From NCBI GenBank assembly GCA_000004985.1, contig GG738896.1: 64,000 nt of DNA; one strand, written 5' to 3'. The position numbers and the translations under genes are program-made. Under the pieces are notes generated by a model. It was not told the origin of the DNA, searched no databases, and was given only the letters and a program-made list of their open reading frames with translations. This document shows, piece after piece, positions 17,706 through 61,352 of the stretch. Every line of letters begins with the position of its first letter. Positions within the stretch are counted from its first letter, which is position 1. This DNA is from Naegleria gruberi. Its lineage: Eukaryota.

Positions 17706-18469
<764 letters not shown>

Positions 18470-43933: not shown

Positions 43934-46900
43934 ATGCAACAACCACATTCCAGAACGTTTCTCTATTTGCTTTTCATATTAATATTGCAAGTGTGTTTGC
44001 AAGTTCAACAACATTCCACCACACTAGCTGTCAACACATGTTGGGGATATTCAGCTACTGACATTTCGAATGTATGTGGAGGTCATGGTTTCTGTCAAAG
44101 TACTGATTCTTGCTATTGTGTAGATTCAACGAGTAGTAATACTTTATATTCATCAGGAGGATCCAACACTCTCTATCAGGAAACTTCTCTATGGTCCACC
44201 AACTCTCAATTCGAATTGAAACAACAAAATGATGGTAATTTGGTAGTTTATACGAGAAGTGGAGGAGTGGTTTTCTCTTTCTCAACTTGGCAACAAACAC
44301 CTGATACTCCCTATACTTTAGTTCTTTCTGGGGATGGTACATTACAAGTTAAAAGTGGTGGAGGTGCCATTATAAAGACAATTTCAGGAGCATGTGGTGG
44401 TACAGCCCCTTACAAATTACTAGTCCAAAATGATGGTAATATAGTGCTCTATGGAGCACAGAGAGAAGTTTGTTTTGCTTCTGGAACATCTCAAGGTGGT
44501 TATTCACTTACGTATAATTGGGGTGGAGACCAGTGCAATCAATATCTTTGTTACGGGTTGACTGGTGCTAATGCATGTAATGGTCACGGCTCTTGTAATT
44601 CGAGGGATAGTTGCTCATGTAATAATGGATACAGTGGAAGTCAATGTACTGAGTACTACTGCAATAGTGTACTGTATTCTCAGATTGGTACAGTTTGTAA
44701 TGGTCATGGAACGTGTACGGCTCCAAATACTTGTCAATGTACTGGTGGATATAATGGTACTTTTTGTGCTTCATATCAATGTTATGGATTTGAATCGAAT
44801 GACCCAGGAGCATGTAGTGGATTTGGAACTTGTTCTTCACCAAATACTTGTACTAATTGTCTTGCTGGAAGATATGGATCTGAGTGCCAATATTATGATT
44901 GCGGTGGAATTAGATTTGATCAACCAAACGTATGCTCTGGAAGAGGAGAATGTGGTTCTAAAAACAATTGTACTTGTTCAGAGCCATACTTTGGAGATAA
45001 TTGTGAAAATTTTATGTGTAATGGAATCATTAACAATTCTACGCTCGTTTGTTCAGGCCATGGAGCATGTTCTTCACCAGAGAATTGTACTTGCCAAGAG
45101 GGTTACTTTGGAGAGAATTGTGAATTGTTTGAATGCAGTGGAATTTTGAAAAATGAATCAAATGTGTGCACTGGATTTGGTAATTGCACAGCATTTGATA
45201 GTTGTCAATGTGATGAGCAACATTATGGTAAATTCTGTGAAATTAATATTTGCAATGGAGTACTCTCAAACAGTCCAAGTGTTTGCTCTTCACATGGTCA
45301 ATGTAACTCATTCAATAATTGTACTTGTGATGAAAATTATAGTGGACAAAATTGTGAAATTTATGATTGTTATGGAGCTTCTAAAAATTCCTCCTCCGTA
45401 TGCTCTGGAAGAGGAACATGTTCAGCATATAACAATTGTAGTTGCTCTGCACCTTTTTATGGATCTGATTGTGGATTATATAATTGTTTTGGAGTAGAGC
45501 ACTTGAACGACAGTTCATGTTCATCCCATGGTTCATGTGATTCACCAAACAATTGTACATGTAAACCTGGATATTATGGAAACCGTTGTGAGTTTCATAA
45601 TTGTTATGGCACTCTCTTCAACAGCTCAGGTGTTTGTTCCACTCATGGACAATGCTTATCACCAAATAATTGTTTCTGTGAAGCAGGATTCTATGGACCA
45701 GAATGTGCAGAATATGATTGTTTTGGAGTTCATAAGAATTCTTCAAATGTTTGTTTCCAACATGGAGCTTGTTTGAGTCCAAATAATTGTTCTTGCCAGG
45801 AAGGATACTTTTCGTTTGATTGTTCTAATCATAGATGTTATGGATATTTATTTAATGATACTACAAATGTTTGTAATGGCCATGGCTCATGTCCTTATCC
45901 AAATAATTGTACATGTCAATCAGGATATTATGGATATCAGTGTGAATCTCATGAATGCTTTGGAAAGTTATTCAATATCTCGACTGTTTGTTCCACCCAT
46001 GGACAATGTTTGTCACCAAATAATTGTTTCTGTGAAGCAGGATATTATGGACCAGAATGTGCAGAATATGATTGTTTTGGAGTTCATAAGAATTCTTCAA
46101 ATGTATGCTTCCAGCACGGTACATGTTTGAGTCCTAACAATTGCTCATGCCAAGAAGGATACTACGGATTCGATTGTTCTAATCACAACTGTTTTGGAAT
46201 TCTGTTTAATGATACCATGAATGTTTGTAATGGTCATGGTTCTTGTTTTGTTCCAGATAATTGTACATGTCATCCAGGATATTATGGAAAAACCTGTGAA
46301 ATGCACAATTGTTTCAATATTTTGTTCAATGACTCAAATGTTTGCTCAGGAAAAGGTCAATGCTTATCACCAAATAACTGTTCCTGTGTTGATGGTTTTA
46401 CCAATAAGGATTGCTCAGTGAATATCAGTCCTTTCCAAATCAACCTCACAAAATACGAAGAAGTTGTTTATTTGGAGTTTGATAACAAGACTATTAGTGT
46501 TGAAATTCAATTGACAGATCGAGTATTGAGCCAAAGTCCAAATATTTCCTACACTTGGTCTTGTGCTCAGTGCGATGGACAAAATGTGGTGTATTATGTT
46601 GATTCTAATCGTTTGTTCATCAACTCTACATTAACTGATGTTACTCAAGCAGGCAATTACACTTTCATTGCAAACGCATCCATTGCTAATATTCAACCAT
46701 TCCAAAGTAGAAAATCCAACATTGAGCAATTCAAATTGGTTGTAAAGTATGATTTGAATCAGCCAACTTTGGGCTCCTTTGGCTTACCTTCTGTACTTGT
46801 ATCTAATACTCAAGATCAAACTATTTCAACTGTTATTAATAGTATCACTCTTAATCAAACAACTGTAAGATACTTTTTGGGTTGTGGTAGAAATTGCTCA

Positions 46901-49900
46901 ACTTTGGTTTCGTATTTATACGAAGTGAAGGCTGGAGTGTTTTATTACAAAAAATCAGGTTCTGTAATGGCACAATTTGAGAGCTCTAATCTATTGACCT
47001 TTTCTCCATCTGTTCCTATTCAAGCAACCATTCCATCTGATTATTTGAATGAAACAGTCTCATTCACATTTACAGTTATCAATAACAAGCAACAGAATAT
47101 CAGTTCAACTGTACAAATTCAAATTGTCTCCTCTGCAAGCCCACCAACACGACTGACAAACATAGTGGATGTTGTACCAACATATGGTATTTCAATGAGT
47201 GAAAAGTTTACAATTAAGGTTTCGGAGTGGGTTGCATCACCTGAACTGTTACCACTAAAATACGCTTTTGGATATTTTGATAAATCCAAGGCAGAAGCTG
47301 TGAGATTGACCGAATATGGTCTTAATACTACGTTTTCATCTTATCTACCTTATATTAGATCATCATCTAGCTCTAAGGCAAGAAGCATCTTGGAAGCTAC
47401 AGAGACAATTGCTTTGGTTGTCTTTGTACAAGACTCTCTTGGAAATGTCGAAACTGAAACGGCAGCTAATGTAACAGTATCTCCATTTAATGGAACTCAA
47501 GAGCAATATATTGAGGTTGTTAAATCTTTGAGCGGAGAATCACTATTGGTTGCCTCAGTGGATCAAACATTCACAAGCTTAGCATCATCATCATTGGTTT
47601 CAGCCCTCATTTCTAATATTGAAATTGATCCAAAGAATCCTTCTTCTTCTCTTTCCAGCTTGGAAACGCTCACGTCCAACAATGAAACACTCACAGCCAA
47701 TACAGTTACTCAGGTCATCAACAAATTGGATTCATTTATCTCCAATCTAACAGAGCTCTATTTAAGTGAACTTGCTCTATATGGCTATGTGAAATCCGGG
47801 ATGTCCAGTACAGACATTAGCAAAACAGTTCAAATTATTTCGAACTGTTTCTCTACTTCATATGATGCCGAAAAAACCAAATCAACAGCAAGTCTCGTCA
47901 CAGGTCTGATTTATTATGGAACTATTCCTTCTGTTGTAGACACAACATCCACAGAATTACCAACAACCTCTTACAAATCAACTTCTATTAACATTACTGT
48001 TTCTAGTTTCAACATGCCAACACCGAGTACGAATCTACAATCAGTCTCAGATACTGAAAGCAAGGTAGCAATGAATTTGACATCTATTTTGTCCAAATAT
48101 GGTGCCTATTCGACAACATGTGGTGCAACAATGATAATTTATTCAAAGAACACTAATTATGATTCCTCTGTTAGTAACATGACTATCAGTTCCTCTGTTA
48201 CTGACTTTAAATTCATGAGAAAACTGGATATTTTAGTATTGAAAAATTTGGATTCACCGCTCATACTTTCCTTCAATGCAGCCACAATCCCAAGCTCAGT
48301 GATCGCCAACTCCACAGTTACCAACAGTACGTATCATTGTAAGTATTGGGATGAGAGTCTTAAATTGTGGAGCAGCAATGGATGTTTATTGAATAGAGTT
48401 TCATCAAATTCAATTGAATGCGCTTGCTCTCATACAACTATGTTTACAACTTTCCTTGAATCCAAGACCACAGCACTTACTGTTCAACTCAAGGATCAGG
48501 TTTCGTCTTTATACTATGCCCAAATATCATTCGGTATTATTTACTTGATTGCCGCCAGTGCTATTTTGGTTGGATTGATTGTTTTGAGAAAATCGCAACC
48601 TGTTAGCTCTAGATTACTGACTCCATATGTTGGTTTGATTGCCTTAATTGTGGAATGTACATTGATTTACATAGTACAAAGATCTGTTCTCGTTGATCAA
48701 TTGAACTCTGCCAATACTCAAATGTGGGAAAATGGAGATACTGCTGCCAACATTATTGCAAACATTGTAATGATTATTGTAAACACTCTCAATTTAACTG
48801 CCATTTTCTGTTACGTCATGCAAGTTTTCAGATTCCAATTCATGAAATTGCTTTACAAGAAACTTTCTGATAATAGAACTCAAGCTCAAAGTGCAACAGT
48901 TTTGAAAGTATTGAAGTATACCACTTCTCAAATATTATTTTATTCATTGATTGGAATTTTTACTGCCCTAAATATTGCCTATTGGGTTATTTGGGTCATT
49001 CTGAGAAGAACTGGAGTTCTCACATCAACACAGTACACCTATGTTGTATCCCTTTCTTATACGGTTTGCATTTTGGCATTTGGTTTGATAATTACTGCTG
49101 TTGCAATCCTTGACATGATTCTCTCCTCAAAGAAGGAAGTTGAGCAAAAGAAAAATAGAAGAAAAGCTATTAACTTTTCACAACCAACCAGCAACTTTAG
49201 TCTTGATAATGCTGAAAATGTACATGAAAAGAAGAAAATTAATAGGAATGTATTCTTGAATGCTTTCAATTGGTTTACATCAATGGATGGACCACTCTAT
49301 TTCAGAATGGAAATGTTCATTTATATCGTGTCTTTCATTTTGCTAATATTGAATCAAGTTATTGGATTGAGTAGCTTAGCATACAGATTTGAGAGTTTGA
49401 CAATGTTTAAACTTGCTTTGACTTTTGATTCCATTTCCTTCATCTTTGAGGTACTCTATGTGGTCTCATATATTTTAGTATTTGGTGGTTATGCACTCAT
49501 TGTCGCAATCATTTACAAGGTTAGACAACGTAGAACAAGAAAGGAAGAACAAAAGAAACAAAATGAGGAAATTATGAATCAAGAACTTTACAATACTTTG
49601 GAATCTGAAGAAGGTTATGAACTCTTTGCCAACTTTTGCGAAAAAGAATTCAGTTCAGAAAATCTATTCCTCTTCTCTGATATCAAAGCAAGTCCAGATG
49701 TGGCCTCTGGTGAAAATCTAGGAGGATTACTCTTCTTTGCTGAGAGAATTTATGAAAAGTACATCAAGACAGGTGCAGAAATGGAAGTTAACATTCCATC
49801 AAAGAGTAGAACTGCTTTTGTCCAACTCTATGAAAAATGTAAGAAAGTTGAAACAAACTCTTCATTGGAATTATTAGATTCTAATTCTCTAGCTAAATCT

Positions 49901-50077
49901 GGAATTGAAACCAATATTGTAAAGGATTGTTTCGATTTAATGATGAGACAAGTAGTAATGAATTTAGGAGATACCTTTTCTAGATTTGTTTTCACACCAG
50001 AATATGTTAATTTCAAGGCGGTTAGAGACGTTCAAATGCAAATTATCGAGAAGGCCAATGTTGTCTATGATATTTAA
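43934..50077 (+). CDS. Giant adhesion-GPCR-like receptor: signal peptide - bulb-type (B) lectin - about 20 EGF-like modules - S/T-rich stalk - GAIN/GPS motif - 7TM - C-terminal RGS domain
   Basis: Signal peptide FLYLLFILILQVCLQV. B-lectin QNDGNLVVYT and VQNDGNIVLYG. EGF units have a CxxxxxCxC..GYxGxxC periodicity of about 40 aa. GPS: CKYWDESLKLWSSNGCLLNRVSSNSIECACSHTTMFTTF. Seven hydrophobic helices. RGS: FANFCEKEFSSENLFLFSDIKA .. AEMEVNIPSKSRTAF .. DCFDLMMRQVVMNLGDTFSRFVFTPEY. Single 6.1-kb exon with an A-rich context at the ATG. Confidence 0.8.
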   Translation: MQQPHSRTFLYLLFILILQVCLQVQQHSTTLAVNTCWGYSATDISNVCGGHGFCQSTDSCYCVDSTSSNTLYSSGGSNTLYQETSLWSTNSQFELKQQNDGNLVVYTRSGGVVFSFSTWQQTPDTPYTLVLSGDGTLQVKSGGGAIIKTISGACGGTAPYKLLVQNDGNIVLYGAQREVCFASGTSQGGYSLTYNWGGDQCNQYLCYGLTGANACNGHGSCNSRDSCSCNNGYSGSQCTEYYCNSVLYSQIGTVCNGHGTCTAPNTCQCTGGYNGTFCASYQCYGFESNDPGACSGFGTCSSPNTCTNCLAGRYGSECQYYDCGGIRFDQPNVCSGRGECGSKNNCTCSEPYFGDNCENFMCNGIINNSTLVCSGHGACSSPENCTCQEGYFGENCELFECSGILKNESNVCTGFGNCTAFDSCQCDEQHYGKFCEINICNGVLSNSPSVCSSHGQCNSFNNCTCDENYSGQNCEIYDCYGASKNSSSVCSGRGTCSAYNNCSCSAPFYGSDCGLYNCFGVEHLNDSSCSSHGSCDSPNNCTCKPGYYGNRCEFHNCYGTLFNSSGVCSTHGQCLSPNNCFCEAGFYGPECAEYDCFGVHKNSSNVCFQHGACLSPNNCSCQEGYFSFDCSNHRCYGYLFNDTTNVCNGHGSCPYPNNCTCQSGYYGYQCESHECFGKLFNISTVCSTHGQCLSPNNCFCEAGYYGPECAEYDCFGVHKNSSNVCFQHGTCLSPNNCSCQEGYYGFDCSNHNCFGILFNDTMNVCNGHGSCFVPDNCTCHPGYYGKTCEMHNCFNILFNDSNVCSGKGQCLSPNNCSCVDGFTNKDCSVNISPFQINLTKYEEVVYLEFDNKTISVEIQLTDRVLSQSPNISYTWSCAQCDGQNVVYYVDSNRLFINSTLTDVTQAGNYTFIANASIANIQPFQSRKSNIEQFKLVVKYDLNQPTLGSFGLPSVLVSNTQDQTISTVINSITLNQTTVRYFLGCGRNCSTLVSYLYEVKAGVFYYKKSGSVMAQFESSNLLTFSPSVPIQATIPSDYLNETVSFTFTVINNKQQNISSTVQIQIVSSASPPTRLTNIVDVVPTYGISMSEKFTIKVSEWVASPELLPLKYAFGYFDKSKAEAVRLTEYGLNTTFSSYLPYIRSSSSSKARSILEATETIALVVFVQDSLGNVETETAANVTVSPFNGTQEQYIEVVKSLSGESLLVASVDQTFTSLASSSLVSALISNIEIDPKNPSSSLSSLETLTSNNETLTANTVTQVINKLDSFISNLTELYLSELALYGYVKSGMSSTDISKTVQIISNCFSTSYDAEKTKSTASLVTGLIYYGTIPSVVDTTSTELPTTSYKSTSINITVSSFNMPTPSTNLQSVSDTESKVAMNLTSILSKYGAYSTTCGATMIIYSKNTNYDSSVSNMTISSSVTDFKFMRKLDILVLKNLDSPLILSFNAATIPSSVIANSTVTNSTYHCKYWDESLKLWSSNGCLLNRVSSNSIECACSHTTMFTTFLESKTTALTVQLKDQVSSLYYAQISFGIIYLIAASAILVGLIVLRKSQPVSSRLLTPYVGLIALIVECTLIYIVQRSVLVDQLNSANTQMWENGDTAANIIANIVMIIVNTLNLTAIFCYVMQVFRFQFMKLLYKKLSDNRTQAQSATVLKVLKYTTSQILFYSLIGIFTALNIAYWVIWVILRRTGVLTSTQYTYVVSLSYTVCILAFGLIITAVAILDMILSSKKEVEQKKNRRKAINFSQPTSNFSLDNAENVHEKKKINRNVFLNAFNWFTSMDGPLYFRMEMFIYIVSFILLILNQVIGLSSLAYRFESLTMFKLALTFDSISFIFEVLYVVSYILVFGGYALIVAIIYKVRQRRTRKEEQKKQNEEIMNQELYNTLESEEGYELFANFCEKEFSSENLFLFSDIKASPDVASGENLGGLLFFAERIYEKYIKTGAEMEVNIPSKSRTAFVQLYEKCKKVETNSSLELLDSNSLAKSGIETNIVKDCFDLMMRQVVMNLGDTFSRFVFTPEYVNFKAVRDVQMQIIEKANVVYDI
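45600..46400 (+). repeat. Intragenic higher-order tandem duplication (about 360 nt, or 3 EGF modules) with high nucleotide identity
   Basis: ..caccaaataattgtttctgtgaagcagga(t/a)t(c/t)tatggaccagaatgtgcagaatatgattgttttggagttcataagaattcttcaaatgt.. occurs at about 45660 and again at about 46020. At the protein level, HGQCLSPNNCFCEAGFYGPECAEYDCFGVHKNSSNVCFQHG..CLSPNNCSCQEGY.. is repeated. Confidence 0.7.
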
Positions 50078-51025: not shown

Positions 51026-52039
51026 ATGTCGCAACAAGCAACAATTGATTCATCATCATCGCCAGCAAACATGTATTTTCCGGTGCAAACAAAAATTTCA
51101 TGCCTCTTTGAAATTGAATTTTTAGAGAAGGAGAAGAAAGTTCTTGCTGTCAATAGATTATATAAGAAGGTTGTTAATTTACCAACCAATTCTGATGATA
51201 TCCGAGTGAATCCGACCATAAAAATTGATGGCACTTGTTGTCTTGTTCGTCAAGAGAAATTATTTAAACGTTATGATAGAAAATTGAATGCTTCGGGATC
51301 GAAGAAGAATAAGCAATTTCAAAAAGAAATTTCTCAAGGTACTGCCGATACTAATATTTTACAATTTGATATTTCAAAGGATTTTAAGGAGGGACCAAAA
51401 GGATGGATACCTTGTGATAGTATTGCTCATTTATTTACTGAGGAGAATAATTCAAATGTGGTTTCGTCTCAACATTTAGTGGGATGGATTCCTGTGGATT
51501 CTAATGATGCTGCAGATAAATGGCATTCTTCTGCGATAGTTTCGATTAATAATGAGCCACATGCCATAATGTTAATTCCCTATTTTGACCAAAATGATGA
51601 ACAAGCCAAGTTTTCAGTTGAATTTAGAAAGTTATCAAGTTTAGAAAATCAAACATTGGAATTAATTGGATCAAAAATTAATGGTAACGTTTATAACTTT
51701 CCTGCAAATGAAAAACAACACTTTTTAGTTCCACATGGATGGGCTTCCTATTCTTGGAAAGCAAGTAATGCATTTTTGGAGAATGTTAAAGAGCTCACCG
51801 TGGAAAAGCTTAAATCTTGGTTCGAAGATGAATCCAATATCATGAGTAAAAGTGAAGGTATTGTATTTCACATAATGTACAAAACAGAGGAAGGTAAGGA
51901 TAAGGAAATGCTGATCAAAATACACAGACACCACCTTAATTTGGATTGGCCTTTGAAGGGCTCTGCCATTCCACAATTTCAATATCAGTTGCAATGGATA
52001 GAAGAAGTTTTGAGACTCAAGAGTGAAAATAAACTCTAA
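51026..52039 (+). CDS. C12orf29-like (Rnl-family) 5'-3' RNA ligase homolog
   Basis: NPTIKIDGTCCLVRQEKLFKRYDRK matches the KxDG nucleotidyltransferase motif and flanks of human C12orf29 (..IPTEKVDGTCCYV..RLDRK) as recalled. Similar length, 337 aa against about 325. The N-terminal ..ISCLFEIEFLEK..KVLAV.. is also similar. Confidence 0.6.
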   Translation: MSQQATIDSSSSPANMYFPVQTKISCLFEIEFLEKEKKVLAVNRLYKKVVNLPTNSDDIRVNPTIKIDGTCCLVRQEKLFKRYDRKLNASGSKKNKQFQKEISQGTADTNILQFDISKDFKEGPKGWIPCDSIAHLFTEENNSNVVSSQHLVGWIPVDSNDAADKWHSSAIVSINNEPHAIMLIPYFDQNDEQAKFSVEFRKLSSLENQTLELIGSKINGNVYNFPANEKQHFLVPHGWASYSWKASNAFLENVKELTVEKLKSWFEDESNIMSKSEGIVFHIMYKTEEGKDKEMLIKIHRHHLNLDWPLKGSAIPQFQYQLQWIEEVLRLKSENKL

Positions 52040-56888: not shown

Positions 56889-58143
56889 TTATTCCTCAAT
56901 GGCACGAACAATAAATTCCTCCACAAATTCGAAAAATGATAAACTACCATCTAGTTCAAAAGGATTTTCATGATCAAAATCTCCTGTAAATGGATCCTTA
57001 TCAGAGCTACCTGAATCTCTAATAAAGGATTGGCCATTACCAGCTCCATCATTGTTAAATTGGAGTACCTCTTTCTCCATATCCTCACCTGAATCCATGG
57101 GTGTCAAGAATTCTGATCTGAAAATGCCAGACTCCCAAGAATCTAATCTTATTCCAAAAGTTGTTAACCCATTGTTAACAGTATAGAATTTTGCTAACGA
57201 GGTTGGAATTTTTCCCCAACCATCAACTTCGAATTCTTCTGAATTCTTGAGTGGCGGTTCCGCAGAGAAGAATTCGAGCTTTTTTTCATTGAGAATATAG
57301 AGAAGATACCAAGTTTCGTCCTCACTCTTTTCTCTAGTTACATACAGTGATTTGACTTTTTCAACTAAAAGCTCAATAAGATCCGGTACCTCAGAGGCAA
57401 TTGGTTTCCAAATTTCCTCAATTATTTGTGGAACTGTCTTGCCTTTCAAATGGGACCAAGGTGAGTTGACTTGATCAATTGGAGCCAAAACTGAAACCTT
57501 TTGAAAAAAAGAAGGTTCCAAGAGGTATGGTTTCTTTTCAAATTCAGCCAATGAACAATCCCTCATCCTAGATGTGCTGCTAATTTCCTTTGCCTGATCC
57601 TGCCATACAGAACGAACACTCTTATCTCCAACAAATGTTTGCAAAGCTTGTTTGCCATACTTGGTGATATAGAGATTCTTCCACACACTTTCTTCACTTG
57701 CAATCTTGTTGAATGATTTACAAGTTGTTCCAAACTTTGAAACATCGGAAGGTGTGAGATATTGTGAAATATGTGAAAAGATAAATTCAGTTTCCAAGAT
57801 TGATTTGGCTTCACTAGTGAGAGGAGGCCATTTCTTTTCCTCTACAATTGGTTTCCTCTTCTTTCTTGGATTTTCGTATTCTTCTTGTTTTGCCAACTCC
57901 TCCAATCTTTTCTTTGTATTCTCCTCTTCAATCTTTTTCACCTTCTCCTCATGAGCTTTCTTCCACTGATCAAAATCATCAGTGGTGACTTGATCGGATG
58001 GCAACTTTTTAAAACATTGTGAACAATATCCTAAAGTTACACAACAACAACAACAATACGTGATCAATGATTATTGTGAATGACAACAAACCCTTGTTAG
58101 CTTCAGAACCAAAAAAACCACAACCTCCTCTGCAATTACTCAT
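56889..58143 (-). CDS. A20-type zinc finger + F-box protein; 2 exons (about 58143..58092, 58030..56889)
   Basis: The ORF track starts at a TTG and has no in-frame ATG for more than 150 codons. An upstream exon, aaaaaaaATGAGTAATTGCAGAGGAGGTTGTGGTTTTTTTGGTTCTGAAGCTAACAAGG|gtttgt.., joins through ..ttgttgtgtaactttag|GATATTGTTCACAATGTTTTAAAAAG. The product MSNCRGGCGFFGSEANKGGYCSQCFKK matches the A20 finger consensus CxxGCGFxG..CSxCyk. The F-box is ISQYLTPSDVSKFGTTCKSFNKIASEESVWKNLY. Confidence 0.55.
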
Positions 58144-58455
58144 TTTTTTTAATTTTTGATTATATTTAAAACTCTTTGATGGCGGGAAACTGATATTGTA
58201 ATCATGGTATGTAAATCCTGTTAATGGAGGAATATTTAAAATATTACAATAACAAAAGCTGATAATGATTCATAATGAAACTGACTTATTTAGAGTTTGA
58301 TGATACATTGTAAAGTGCATCAAATCTTTTAGTATGAAAAGAATTTAGTGAGCCAGTTCTTTCACTACACTTGCAAAAATTTTATATTCTTGGAAAGTAA
58401 GATGACAGTCCTGATATGAAATTCAACAAGCTCAAAAAAAACTCGACTATTTAAT

Positions 58456-59729
58456 TTAGAAAGTATCAATATCAACAGCCTTCAAAGTTTGACATTCTTC
58501 TCTCAAATCACTGAACAAGACAGTACTCAAGTAACGTTCACCAAAGCTAGGAATGATGGCAACAATCAATTTACCTTCATTTTCTGGTCGTTTAGCAACT
58601 TCCAATGCAGCATAAATAGCAGCACCAGAACTGATACCAACAAACAAACCTTCCTTCAATGCAGCTTCCTTAGCAAATTTAACAGCATTGTCAGAGTGAA
58701 CCTTAAAGATTTCATCAATGAGGGATGTATCCAAAGTGTTTGGAATGAATCCAGCACCAATACCTTGAATCTTGTGTGGGCTTGGGGTATTTCCACTAAT
58801 GACAGCACTTTCTTCTGGTTCAAGAACAATACCTCTAACCTTTGCACGACCTTCCTTTTCAGTTTGTTCATTGAAATACTTCATACATCCTGAAAAGGTA
58901 CCACCTGTACCGGCTCCACTGACGAAAATATCAATTTTGCCATCAGTATCTCTGTAAATTTCTGGACCAGTTGTATTGTAGTGAATCAATGGATTAGCTG
59001 GATTATCAAATTGACCCAAAATGAATGAATTTTCAGTTCTTTGGGCAAGCTTTTCAGCAACAGCAACAGCTCCCTTCATACCCTTGGCAGCAGGAGTCAA
59101 AATCAACTTGGCACCAAGTGATCTCAAGACAACTCTTCTTTCAATACTCATAGAATCAGGCATGATAATAGTACACTATTTTTACACAGCATTTCACATG
59201 TGGTTAACAATTTGTTCAAACACAAACAGCTAATGTTAGTGTGATTAATTCTAAACACTACACATACCTCATATCCCTTGCTAGCAGCAATAAAAGCAAT
59301 ACCAATACCAGTATTACCAGATGTTGGTTCAATCAAGACAGTTTTTCCAGGTTGAATTTTTCCTTCCTTTTCGGCGACTTCAATCATTGACAAGGCAATT
59401 CTGTCTGTTAATAATAATATAAAGGATTCCAATTTGTACAACAGCAGTACAAGGATGAACATTGAATCAATCCATAGATCAATTTTTAATTCATCATCAT
59501 CATCAAATTGAAATAGGAAATTAATTCCATCATCATGATCATCAATTGAAAACTATTAAAAACAATATGATCATCATCAGAATAACATACCCTTGACACT
59601 GCTCATTGGTTCCAAAGATTCCAACTTTAATGCAATCTTGGCTACAGCACCATGTTCCGCAGTGAGTTTATTCAAATATAAGAGTGGTGTGTTACCAATC
59701 AATTCAGTGATGGAATTAGCAATCTTCAT
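58456..59729 (-). CDS. Cysteine synthase / O-acetylserine sulfhydrylase (PLP-dependent, CysK family); 3 exons (about 59729..59591, 59404..59268, 59175..58456)
   Basis: [35 protein letters not shown]|[45 protein letters not shown]|[27 protein letters not shown].. aligns end-to-end with bacterial CysK ([51 protein letters not shown]). Introns are gtatgt..aacag (about 186 nt) and gtatgt..aaatag (about 92 nt). The assembled product is about 331 aa. Confidence 0.8.
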
Positions 59730-59947: not shown

Positions 59948-61352
59948 TTAAGGAAAATCATATTCAAAGACAACATCTGACAAACTGGAAGATTGAAGGG
60001 ATTTGAAAAGGAGAGATTTCAATCTTTTTTCTGCTTCCAATTTAGTGTAATGATTCGAAAAGATGATGGCTGTTGAATATTGACCTGCTGCCACGAGTGA
60101 TAGATTGGCGGTGTGTTCAATAACTAGCTCTCTATTGACACCAGGGGATCTTGGAATCATATCGTCATCATTAAAACCACATTGTGCACAATCATTGACA
60201 CCGAGAGGATAAAACTTTTTGTCATCAATTACCAAAATGCAATGATAGTATCCAGCACTGATTCTTGAAACATTTTCCAATTTGATTTTCTTTGCATTTG
60301 GGTAATTTGATAATTTTTCCACATCTGTTTCAGGAAGCAAGAATCTAGTACCAAATACGTAAACTGTTCCATCTTTTGTCAAAATTAGAGAAAAGTCATA
60401 ACCAAGTGCAATGTCCTTAATATCTGGTACGAAAGGTAGCTTATTTTCTGTTATTGTGAAAATATTATTGGTGTGGGTGAGACCTAGTTGGTTATCTTCA
60501 TTCCATCCCTAAGTCAAGAAAATGGTCAATCTCATCAAATTATGATCTACTTACACAGACGAACAATTTAGTCTCCATTTCCATTGTTTTAACTAGGTAA
60601 TAGACGTGAGAATATCCTGTAAAAATCTTTTCAATTGTCAGATTTCTTTCACTAAAAAATGTTTCCTTCCTTGGCACTTGCTTATCACTTTTGGTCGAAA
60701 GCTCTCCTCTATAACTCCATCCAAAGACAATCAAGTTGTTAAAATTGGTCTTGCAAATAGTACCTTGTCCTAAACAGTGTACAGAAACAATTTTTTCATA
60801 TTGATCCAAATGATGTTCCACCTCGATTCTGTAACATTTTACATTATAGAACTGACTAAACATTCTAGATACCATATCTTCCATATTTACAGCTTCATGT
60901 GAAACACCTAGTCTGCAGTTTCCATTTGTACCGAATCCATAGAGCATATTCTCATTCTTTGTTAAAAACACACAATGTGAAAAACCAATAGCTACATCGA
61001 TAACATTTTTCTTCAAAATGTAAATATCATTACTGATATTCTCAAAATGAGTATGTGGAATAGGCTTCTTAGAGTCTGATCCTTTAGGTTCAGCACAAAT
61101 TTTACAAGCATTATAGGTAGATGGATTGTTGTTTCTATAATCGTTCAGAGTAATGATTAAATTATTTTCATATGTTATAAAGGCCAATCTATTTCCGCCC
61201 ATCTTCACAACTTTAATTCCTTCTTGTTCTAAATAATCATAATTTACAGTATTCTTAAAATTTAATTTGGTTGGTAGACATTTACTAGTCCTAACGTTCA
61301 ATCCCAATTGTTCATTTTCATTTCTTCCGAAAATAACAAATTCAATATTCAT
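59948..61352 (-). CDS. RCC1-like repeat (RLD) protein; 2 exons (about 61352..60555, 60508..59948)
   Basis: RCC1 repeat signatures: IFGRNENEQLGL, GFGTNGNCRLGV, FGWSYRGELS, GWNEDNQLGL. A 46-nt intron (gtaagt..acttag) joins ..KLFVC|GWNEDNQLGLTHTNNIFT..ILTKDGTVYVFG in frame. Confidence 0.65.

Follow-up and report, generated by a model that had tools for sequence, protein, structure and literature searches.

A minus-strand gene of Naegleria gruberi is, with high confidence in both its gene model and its domain content, an ordinary two-exon protein-coding gene. Its 397-aa product carries an A20-type zinc finger, an F-box-like domain and a C-terminal SUKH-1 (Smi1/Knr4-like) domain. The two-exon model and its A20 and F-box content have been public since the N. 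gruberi genome release, and the gene model is not new. The A20/F-box/SUKH architecture and the SUKH-1 assignment appear to be unrecorded so far. Positions below are those of the window, the whole stretch of 64,000 nucleotides that was analysed.

Gene model and public annotation

The six-frame ORF list contained two separate entries at this locus, a long ORF that opens on TTG and a short ATG ORF (Table 1). The preliminary description had stated that the long ORF runs from TTG through CCCCC with no in-frame Met, and its coordinates and sequence statements were correct. The first in-frame ATG of this ORF lies only at 57566, downstream of the F-box (57779..57666). The CCCCC run is a translated (TTG)5 microsatellite (58056..58042). 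An upstream ATG had been proposed as the start of a short first exon, and this assignment was confirmed. No other ATG in its frame intervenes between an in-frame TGA at 58272 and the ATG at 58143, which lies in the context AAAAAAATGA and encodes MSNCRGGCGFFGSEANKG. Further upstream, an ORF of 18 codons (window 58205..58149, -) starts from an ATG at 58205 and ends just ahead of the main ATG.

Removal of the intron at 58091..58031 joined 52 and 1142 nt into a 1194-nt CDS with no internal stops. The intron has GT...AG boundaries (GTTTGT...TTTAG), and its removal restored the frame. The resulting 397-aa protein has the N-terminus MSNCRGGCGFFGSEANKGYCSQCFKK, in which the cysteines are spaced C-x3-C-x11-C-x2-C. 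GC content was 31% in the intron vs 37-40% in the exons (window, 33.7%).

Table 1. Coordinates of the features of the A20/F-box/SUKH gene and of introns in neighbouring genes
Feature	Window position	Strand	Details
Long ORF (six-frame ORF list)	56889..58067	-	392 codons; TTG start; reads MITYCCCCCVTLGYCSQCFKK
Short ATG ORF, separate entry (six-frame ORF list)	58009..58143	-	44 codons; reads MSNCRGGCGFFGSEANKGLLSF...
Exon 1, CDS part	58092..58143	-	ATG at 58143; 52 nt; MSNCRGGCGFFGSEANK and first base of Gly18
Spliceosomal intron	58031..58091	-	61 nt; phase 1; GTTTGT...GTAACTTTAG; (TTG)5 inside
Exon 2, CDS part	56889..58030	-	residues 18-397 and TAA stop at 56891..56889
A20-type zinc finger	58008..58134	-	residues 4-25; PF01754; intron after first base of codon 18
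PRKKRKP basic motif, NLS-like	57849..57869	-	residues 72-78; read from sequence
F-box-like domain	57666..57779	-	residues 102-139; PF12937
C-terminal SUKH-1 (Smi1/Knr4-like) domain	56892..57470	-	residues ~205-397; not in public records
CysK intron 1	59590..59405	-	186 nt; CAAGG|GTATGT...AACAG
CysK intron 2	59267..59176	-	92 nt; GAG|GTATGT...ATAG
RCC1-repeat (RCC1-like) gene intron	60554..60509	-	46 nt; GTAAGT...TTGACTTAG; gene at 59948..61352

The spliced protein was identical (100% identity over 100% of the length) to XP_002672664.1 / EFC39920.1 / UniProt D2VTF2 / EukProt EP00686_P004735, and the exon-intron model is therefore the same as the published one. In public records, N. gruberi XP_002672664.1 / D2VTF2 is named 'A20-like zinc finger domain-containing protein'. 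The 61-nt phase-1 intron running from 58091 to 58031, as earlier proposed, was thus supported by both the open CDS and the identity of its product to XP_002672664.1. Since the public N. gruberi model already includes exon 1, only a prokaryote-style ORF track misses it. The preliminary description of a hidden exon that makes the gene differ from a naive ORF call holds against a bacterial-style ORF list; it does not hold against the published eukaryotic model, which already has both the exon and the A20 name. Annotation of the genome is unaffected; the intron and the split zinc finger were correctly deduced from raw sequence. Precomputed Pfam annotation of D2VTF2 consists of PF01754 and PF12937 only, and the SUKH-1 domain of residues ~205-397 is unrecorded there. 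A literature search for a Naegleria A20/F-box protein found no paper, and one on introns yielded no specific information.

Domain content and predicted role

The order of domains in the protein is A20 finger (residues 4-25), long charged helix with KKRK, F-box-like domain (102-139), helical linker and SUKH-1 (~205-397). The four finger cysteines (Cys4, Cys8, Cys20 and Cys23; C-x3-C-x11-C-x2-C) are present in the spliced product only. Assignment to the zf-A20 family was based on the spacing C-x(2-4)-C-x11-C-x2-C and the Pfam gathering score of 21.6. As had been predicted, splicing rebuilt the finger: the zf-A20 HMM (PF01754) run on the spliced product gave 32.0 bits (E 1.1e-7) over profile positions 3-24 of 24. 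Without splicing, the exon-1 ORF gave 23 bits over profile positions 3-18 only, and the naive TTG ORF did not match the zf-A20 HMM.

Residues 1-50 aligned with solved ubiquitin-binding A20 fingers, i.e. those of TNFAIP3 ZnF4 (3oj3), ZNF216/ZFAND5 (2kzy) and Rabex-5 (2fid, 2c7m); the cysteines are spaced as in these fingers, and the alignments to Rabex-5 and ZNF216 were free of gaps. In the GCG-aromatic-aromatic-G loop, Phe10-Phe11 of the Naegleria finger correspond to YY in Rabex-5, FY in ZNF216 and YF in TNFAIP3 ZnF4. This aromatic pair contacts ubiquitin in the published structures of Rabex-5, ZNF216 and A20 ZnF4. The site on ubiquitin that is bound by the Rabex-5 A20 finger is the Asp58 polar patch (PMC5135002). 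Ranked by similarity of the A20 finger, the nearest 24 proteins were OTU, UCH and MINDY deubiquitinases and AN1 / PUB proteins, all of the ubiquitin system; an F-box was found in none of these 24 proteins when they were scanned. The AlphaFold model has low confidence in the A20 region (pLDDT 41-56), as expected without zinc.

The F-box-like profile PF12937 scored 30.3 bits (gathering 24.3) in both the spliced product and the naive ORF, in agreement with the earlier placement of an F-box in the gene product. The classical F-box profile PF00646 scored 14.7 bits, below its gathering value of 20.5. The N-terminal L-P-x-E/D motif was absent at F-box helix 1, where the sequence is SILETEFIF with no Leu-Pro; the canonical LPxE was judged absent because the PF12937 match begins at about profile position 9-10. 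The region showed a three-helix F-box fold resembling that of Skp1-bound F-box proteins. The fold of the Naegleria protein matched F-box proteins whose structures were determined together with Skp1; among them was FBXO3, in which F-box and SUKH follow each other in the same order. Upstream of the F-box, the PRKKRKP motif lies at the end of a long helix (residues 34-70) predicted in the AlphaFold model. KKRK is kept in N. fowleri, and this conserved motif suggests that the protein may have a nuclear pool.

The C-terminal half gave no match of its own in the Pfam scan, and no match to PF09346 even at E <= 1. In phmmer, ~40 standalone proteins of 230-280 aa matched residues ~205-397 (E 3e-13 to 1e-3). 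PF09346 scores of the standalone relatives scanned were 15-28 bits, with two above the cut-off of 25.4. In a profile search, precomputed PF09346 was present on 19 of the 21 matches besides the query, and one match was a named Anaerolineae SMI1/KNR4 protein; the relatives found in this way bear precomputed PF09346, PF14568 or PF14567. Motifs CPW, GW..P..L..FY.VHNGFG, DG.GNGQ.F and DWDHE are common to the Naegleria domain and the standalone proteins, and the C-terminal half has the SUKH alpha/beta fold. Sequence neighbours and fold, with no direct Pfam match, identify the C-terminal half as SUKH-1. The preliminary description had missed this.

The standalone relatives have bacterial gene neighbours (ABC transporter, IclR, transposases, integrases), and one of them comes immediately after a gene that matches HNH faintly. 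Among bacterial SUKH relatives, fusions with immunity domains of the GAD-like and T6SS Tdi1_C types also occur. Both the fusions and the faint-HNH neighbour (loci P0022, 477 aa, and L005 4101..5753) fit the toxin-immunity role proposed for SUKH proteins of bacteria.

The SUKH-1 assignment makes the product a predicted FBXO3-like substrate receptor with a ubiquitin-binding finger. By analogy with known systems, its most likely role, to which we give about even chances, is that of an SCF substrate receptor equipped with such a finger. Zhang, Iyer and Aravind (2011) proposed that the SUKH domain that follows the F-box in FBXO3, SKIP16 and, independently, some fungal proteins sits at the substrate-recognition position of SCF receptors (PMC3113570). 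In an SCF receptor of this kind, the F-box would dock the protein on Skp1 within the SCF (Skp1-Cullin-F-box) ubiquitin ligase, and the SUKH domain would recognise the substrate, a role that has been proposed for it in FBXO3. Ubiquitin would be bound by the A20 finger, and could be carried by a substrate ubiquitinated beforehand, by a charged E2 (the TNFAIP3 ZnF4 case) or by the ligase. Such binding might make the receptor favour primed substrates or regulate itself.

An unlikely but credible alternative accepts the gene model and dispenses with the SCF ligase. Skp1 would then be bound by the F-box-like helices in the absence of a cullin, or these helices would serve purely as a structural linker, and the A20-SUKH combination would form a ubiquitin-dependent adaptor for trafficking (like Rabex-5) or for proteasome or p97 delivery (like ZNF216/ZFAND5). 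This adaptor role keeps some probability because PF00646 does not reach its threshold and the F-box lacks its LPxE start. By sequence, the nearest A20 fingers belong to adaptors and deubiquitinases, not to E3 receptors, and F-box proteins that act outside SCF exist, yeast Rcy1 and Ctf13 being examples. However, PF12937 scores above its gathering cut-off, the fold is like that of Skp1-bound F-box proteins including FBXO3, with F-box and SUKH in the same order, and a SUKH domain after an F-box has been argued to hold the substrate-recognition position (Zhang et al. 2011, PMC3113570).

Naegleria relatives and splicing

Among 1.84 billion representative proteins scanned in full with HMMER, two were relatives over the whole length, P0002 and P0003. 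The cluster mate of P0002 is Naegleria fowleri XP_044569451.1 (FDP41_000637, 'A20-type domain-containing protein', 426 aa), which begins MSACRAGCGFFGNEANKGYCSKCY. The cluster mate of P0003 is an N. gruberi paralogue, XP_002675876.1 / D2VJ37, which begins MSLCIGGCGFYGTPERRGYCSSCEKK. Identity to the N. gruberi protein was 43% for the N. fowleri orthologue and ~30-32% for the paralogue. Both relatives have the same domain order: A20 finger, charged helix with KKRK, F-box-like domain and SUKH-like C-terminus.

The public model of the paralogue (P0065, 518 aa) has an extra actin-like tail at its C-terminus. In a related metagenome contig (L003, 1211..1570), which starts past the A20 finger, gene calling separates the F-box/SUKH gene from an actin-like ORF. 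Because of these separate calls, the public D2VJ37 model may be a fusion of two neighbouring genes.

Removal of two GT-AG introns from an N. fowleri-type contig (L001) gave exactly the 426 aa of XP_044569451.1. N. fowleri DNA encodes GFFGNEANKGYCSKCY uninterrupted across the N. gruberi junction point, which confirms ANKG|YCS, the peptide at this junction, by homology. N. fowleri has a finger intron of its own (L001 2997..3049; 53 nt, phase 1) in codon 6, i.e. 36 nt or 12 codons upstream of the N. gruberi position in codon 18. The finger introns of both species are in phase 1 and in an ...AG|G context, but their position is not conserved. Such differing introns within a 24-codon domain look like a case of intron turnover or sliding. 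The second N. fowleri intron (L001 4221..4373; 153 nt, phase 2), located before DYDHE, has no counterpart in N. gruberi. A finger intron at different codons in two Naegleria species may interest students of intron turnover; it opens no major question.

The intron was compared with others in the window. In the adjoining cysteine synthase gene (58456..59729, -), two GT-AG introns must be removed before a complete CysK-type protein of 331 aa can be read; in the naive ORF list this gene is cut into pieces. The intron of the RCC1-like gene was used as a control for intron signals. The length of 61 nt falls inside the in-window range of 46-186 nt (46, 92 and 186 nt). The exon context AAGG|GT is common to the A20-gene intron and CysK intron 1. 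A TAAC motif lies just ahead of the acceptor, and TRAC is also found near the 3' end of the RCC1-like gene intron. The donor GTTTGT has T at +3, vs a purine in 5/5 other Naegleria donors (GTATGT twice, GTAAGT once, GTAGGT twice), which are a small sample.

Elsewhere in the window, an intron-free ORF of 2047 aa (43934..50077, +) combines numerous EGF repeats of the teneurin/Jagged type with a hydrophobic multi-pass stretch and, at the C-terminus, an RGS domain (PF00615, 37.9 bits), and looks like a receptor-like RGS protein. A 337-aa ORF at 51026..52039 (+) matches Pfam RLIG1 (RNA ligase 1, PF17720; E 1.6e-42). The 83 N at 18284..18366 are an assembly gap.

From sequence and homology, we infer splicing at 58091..58031. 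The 29-nt spliced junction had no exact match in a collection of metagenome contigs, where a Naegleria transcriptome is not to be expected and its absence is uninformative. The unusual T at +3 of the donor, compared with five other Naegleria donors, could point to an intron that is retained or rarely removed. In that case the product would be the 44-aa peptide MSNCRGGCGFFGSEANKGLLSFTIIIDHVLLLLLCNFRILFTMF or a protein lacking the F-box that starts from Met 57566, and the A20-like exon would be a coincidence or relic. This is highly improbable. Retention brings a stop after 44 codons, and a start at Met 57566 would delete the F-box. The halves of the finger fit at the exact 11-residue spacing and jointly score 32 bits, and finger, F-box and SUKH are found in one protein in both the orthologue and the paralogue. 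The A20-like exon is not a relic, because half the finger is conserved across species at an overall identity of 43%. The retained intron was rejected on the basis of the 44-codon stop, the fit of the finger and the conserved finger/F-box/SUKH layout.

From ATG 58143, 44 in-frame stop-free GT..AG pairings can be drawn on paper, and the four-cysteine spacing was rebuilt by one of these, 58091/58031. Use of one of the 43 further combinations (e.g. the donor/acceptor pairs 58091/57989, 58091/57956 or 58118/58031), with an incomplete A20 finger as the outcome, is likewise highly improbable and was rejected: none of the 43 restores C-x3-C-x11-C-x2-C, such pairings remove the N. fowleri-conserved residues GFFGNEANKGYCSKCY and the following helix, and the public model has 58091/58031.

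Origin and comparison with known systems

The searches made turned up the A20, F-box, SUKH-1 architecture in no organism outside Naegleria. The SUKH module in it lies much nearer to standalone bacterial SMI1/KNR4 proteins of the immunity type than to the eukaryotic FBXO3 lineage. We tentatively propose, as a possibility to which we give less than even weight, that a bacterial SUKH domain was recruited independently, in a heterolobosean-specific event, into an SCF receptor that reads ubiquitin via its own A20 finger. Such a protein might act as an E4-like factor or as a receptor that takes substrates primed with ubiquitin. The SUKH-1 assignment may interest students of the evolution of ubiquitin-ligase architecture; its significance is modest and it opens no major question.

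FBXO3 in animals and SKIP16 in plants consist of F-box, SUKH-1 and ApaG/DUF525. The Naegleria protein, in contrast, ends with SUKH and has no ApaG/DUF525 match, and it has an N-terminal A20 finger, which FBXO3 lacks. Sequence similarity to FBXO3 was negligible (E ~1), vs E values down to 3e-13 for bacterial standalone SUKH proteins. The protein is not an FBXO3 orthologue, because the bacterial proteins match far better; orthology was rejected also on the missing ApaG/DUF525 and the extra A20 finger.

Standalone SMI1/KNR4 (SUKH-1) proteins of bacteria, B. subtilis YobK among them, act as immunity proteins of polymorphic toxin systems. The Naegleria SUKH domain, by contrast, is fused C-terminally to an A20 finger and an F-box, in a eukaryotic gene that has an intron, and a toxin partner is not expected. 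In Rabex-5, ZNF216 and TNFAIP3, the A20 finger has as its partner a VPS9 guanine-nucleotide exchange factor domain, an AN1 finger and an OTU deubiquitinase domain, respectively, whereas its partners in Naegleria are an F-box and a SUKH domain.
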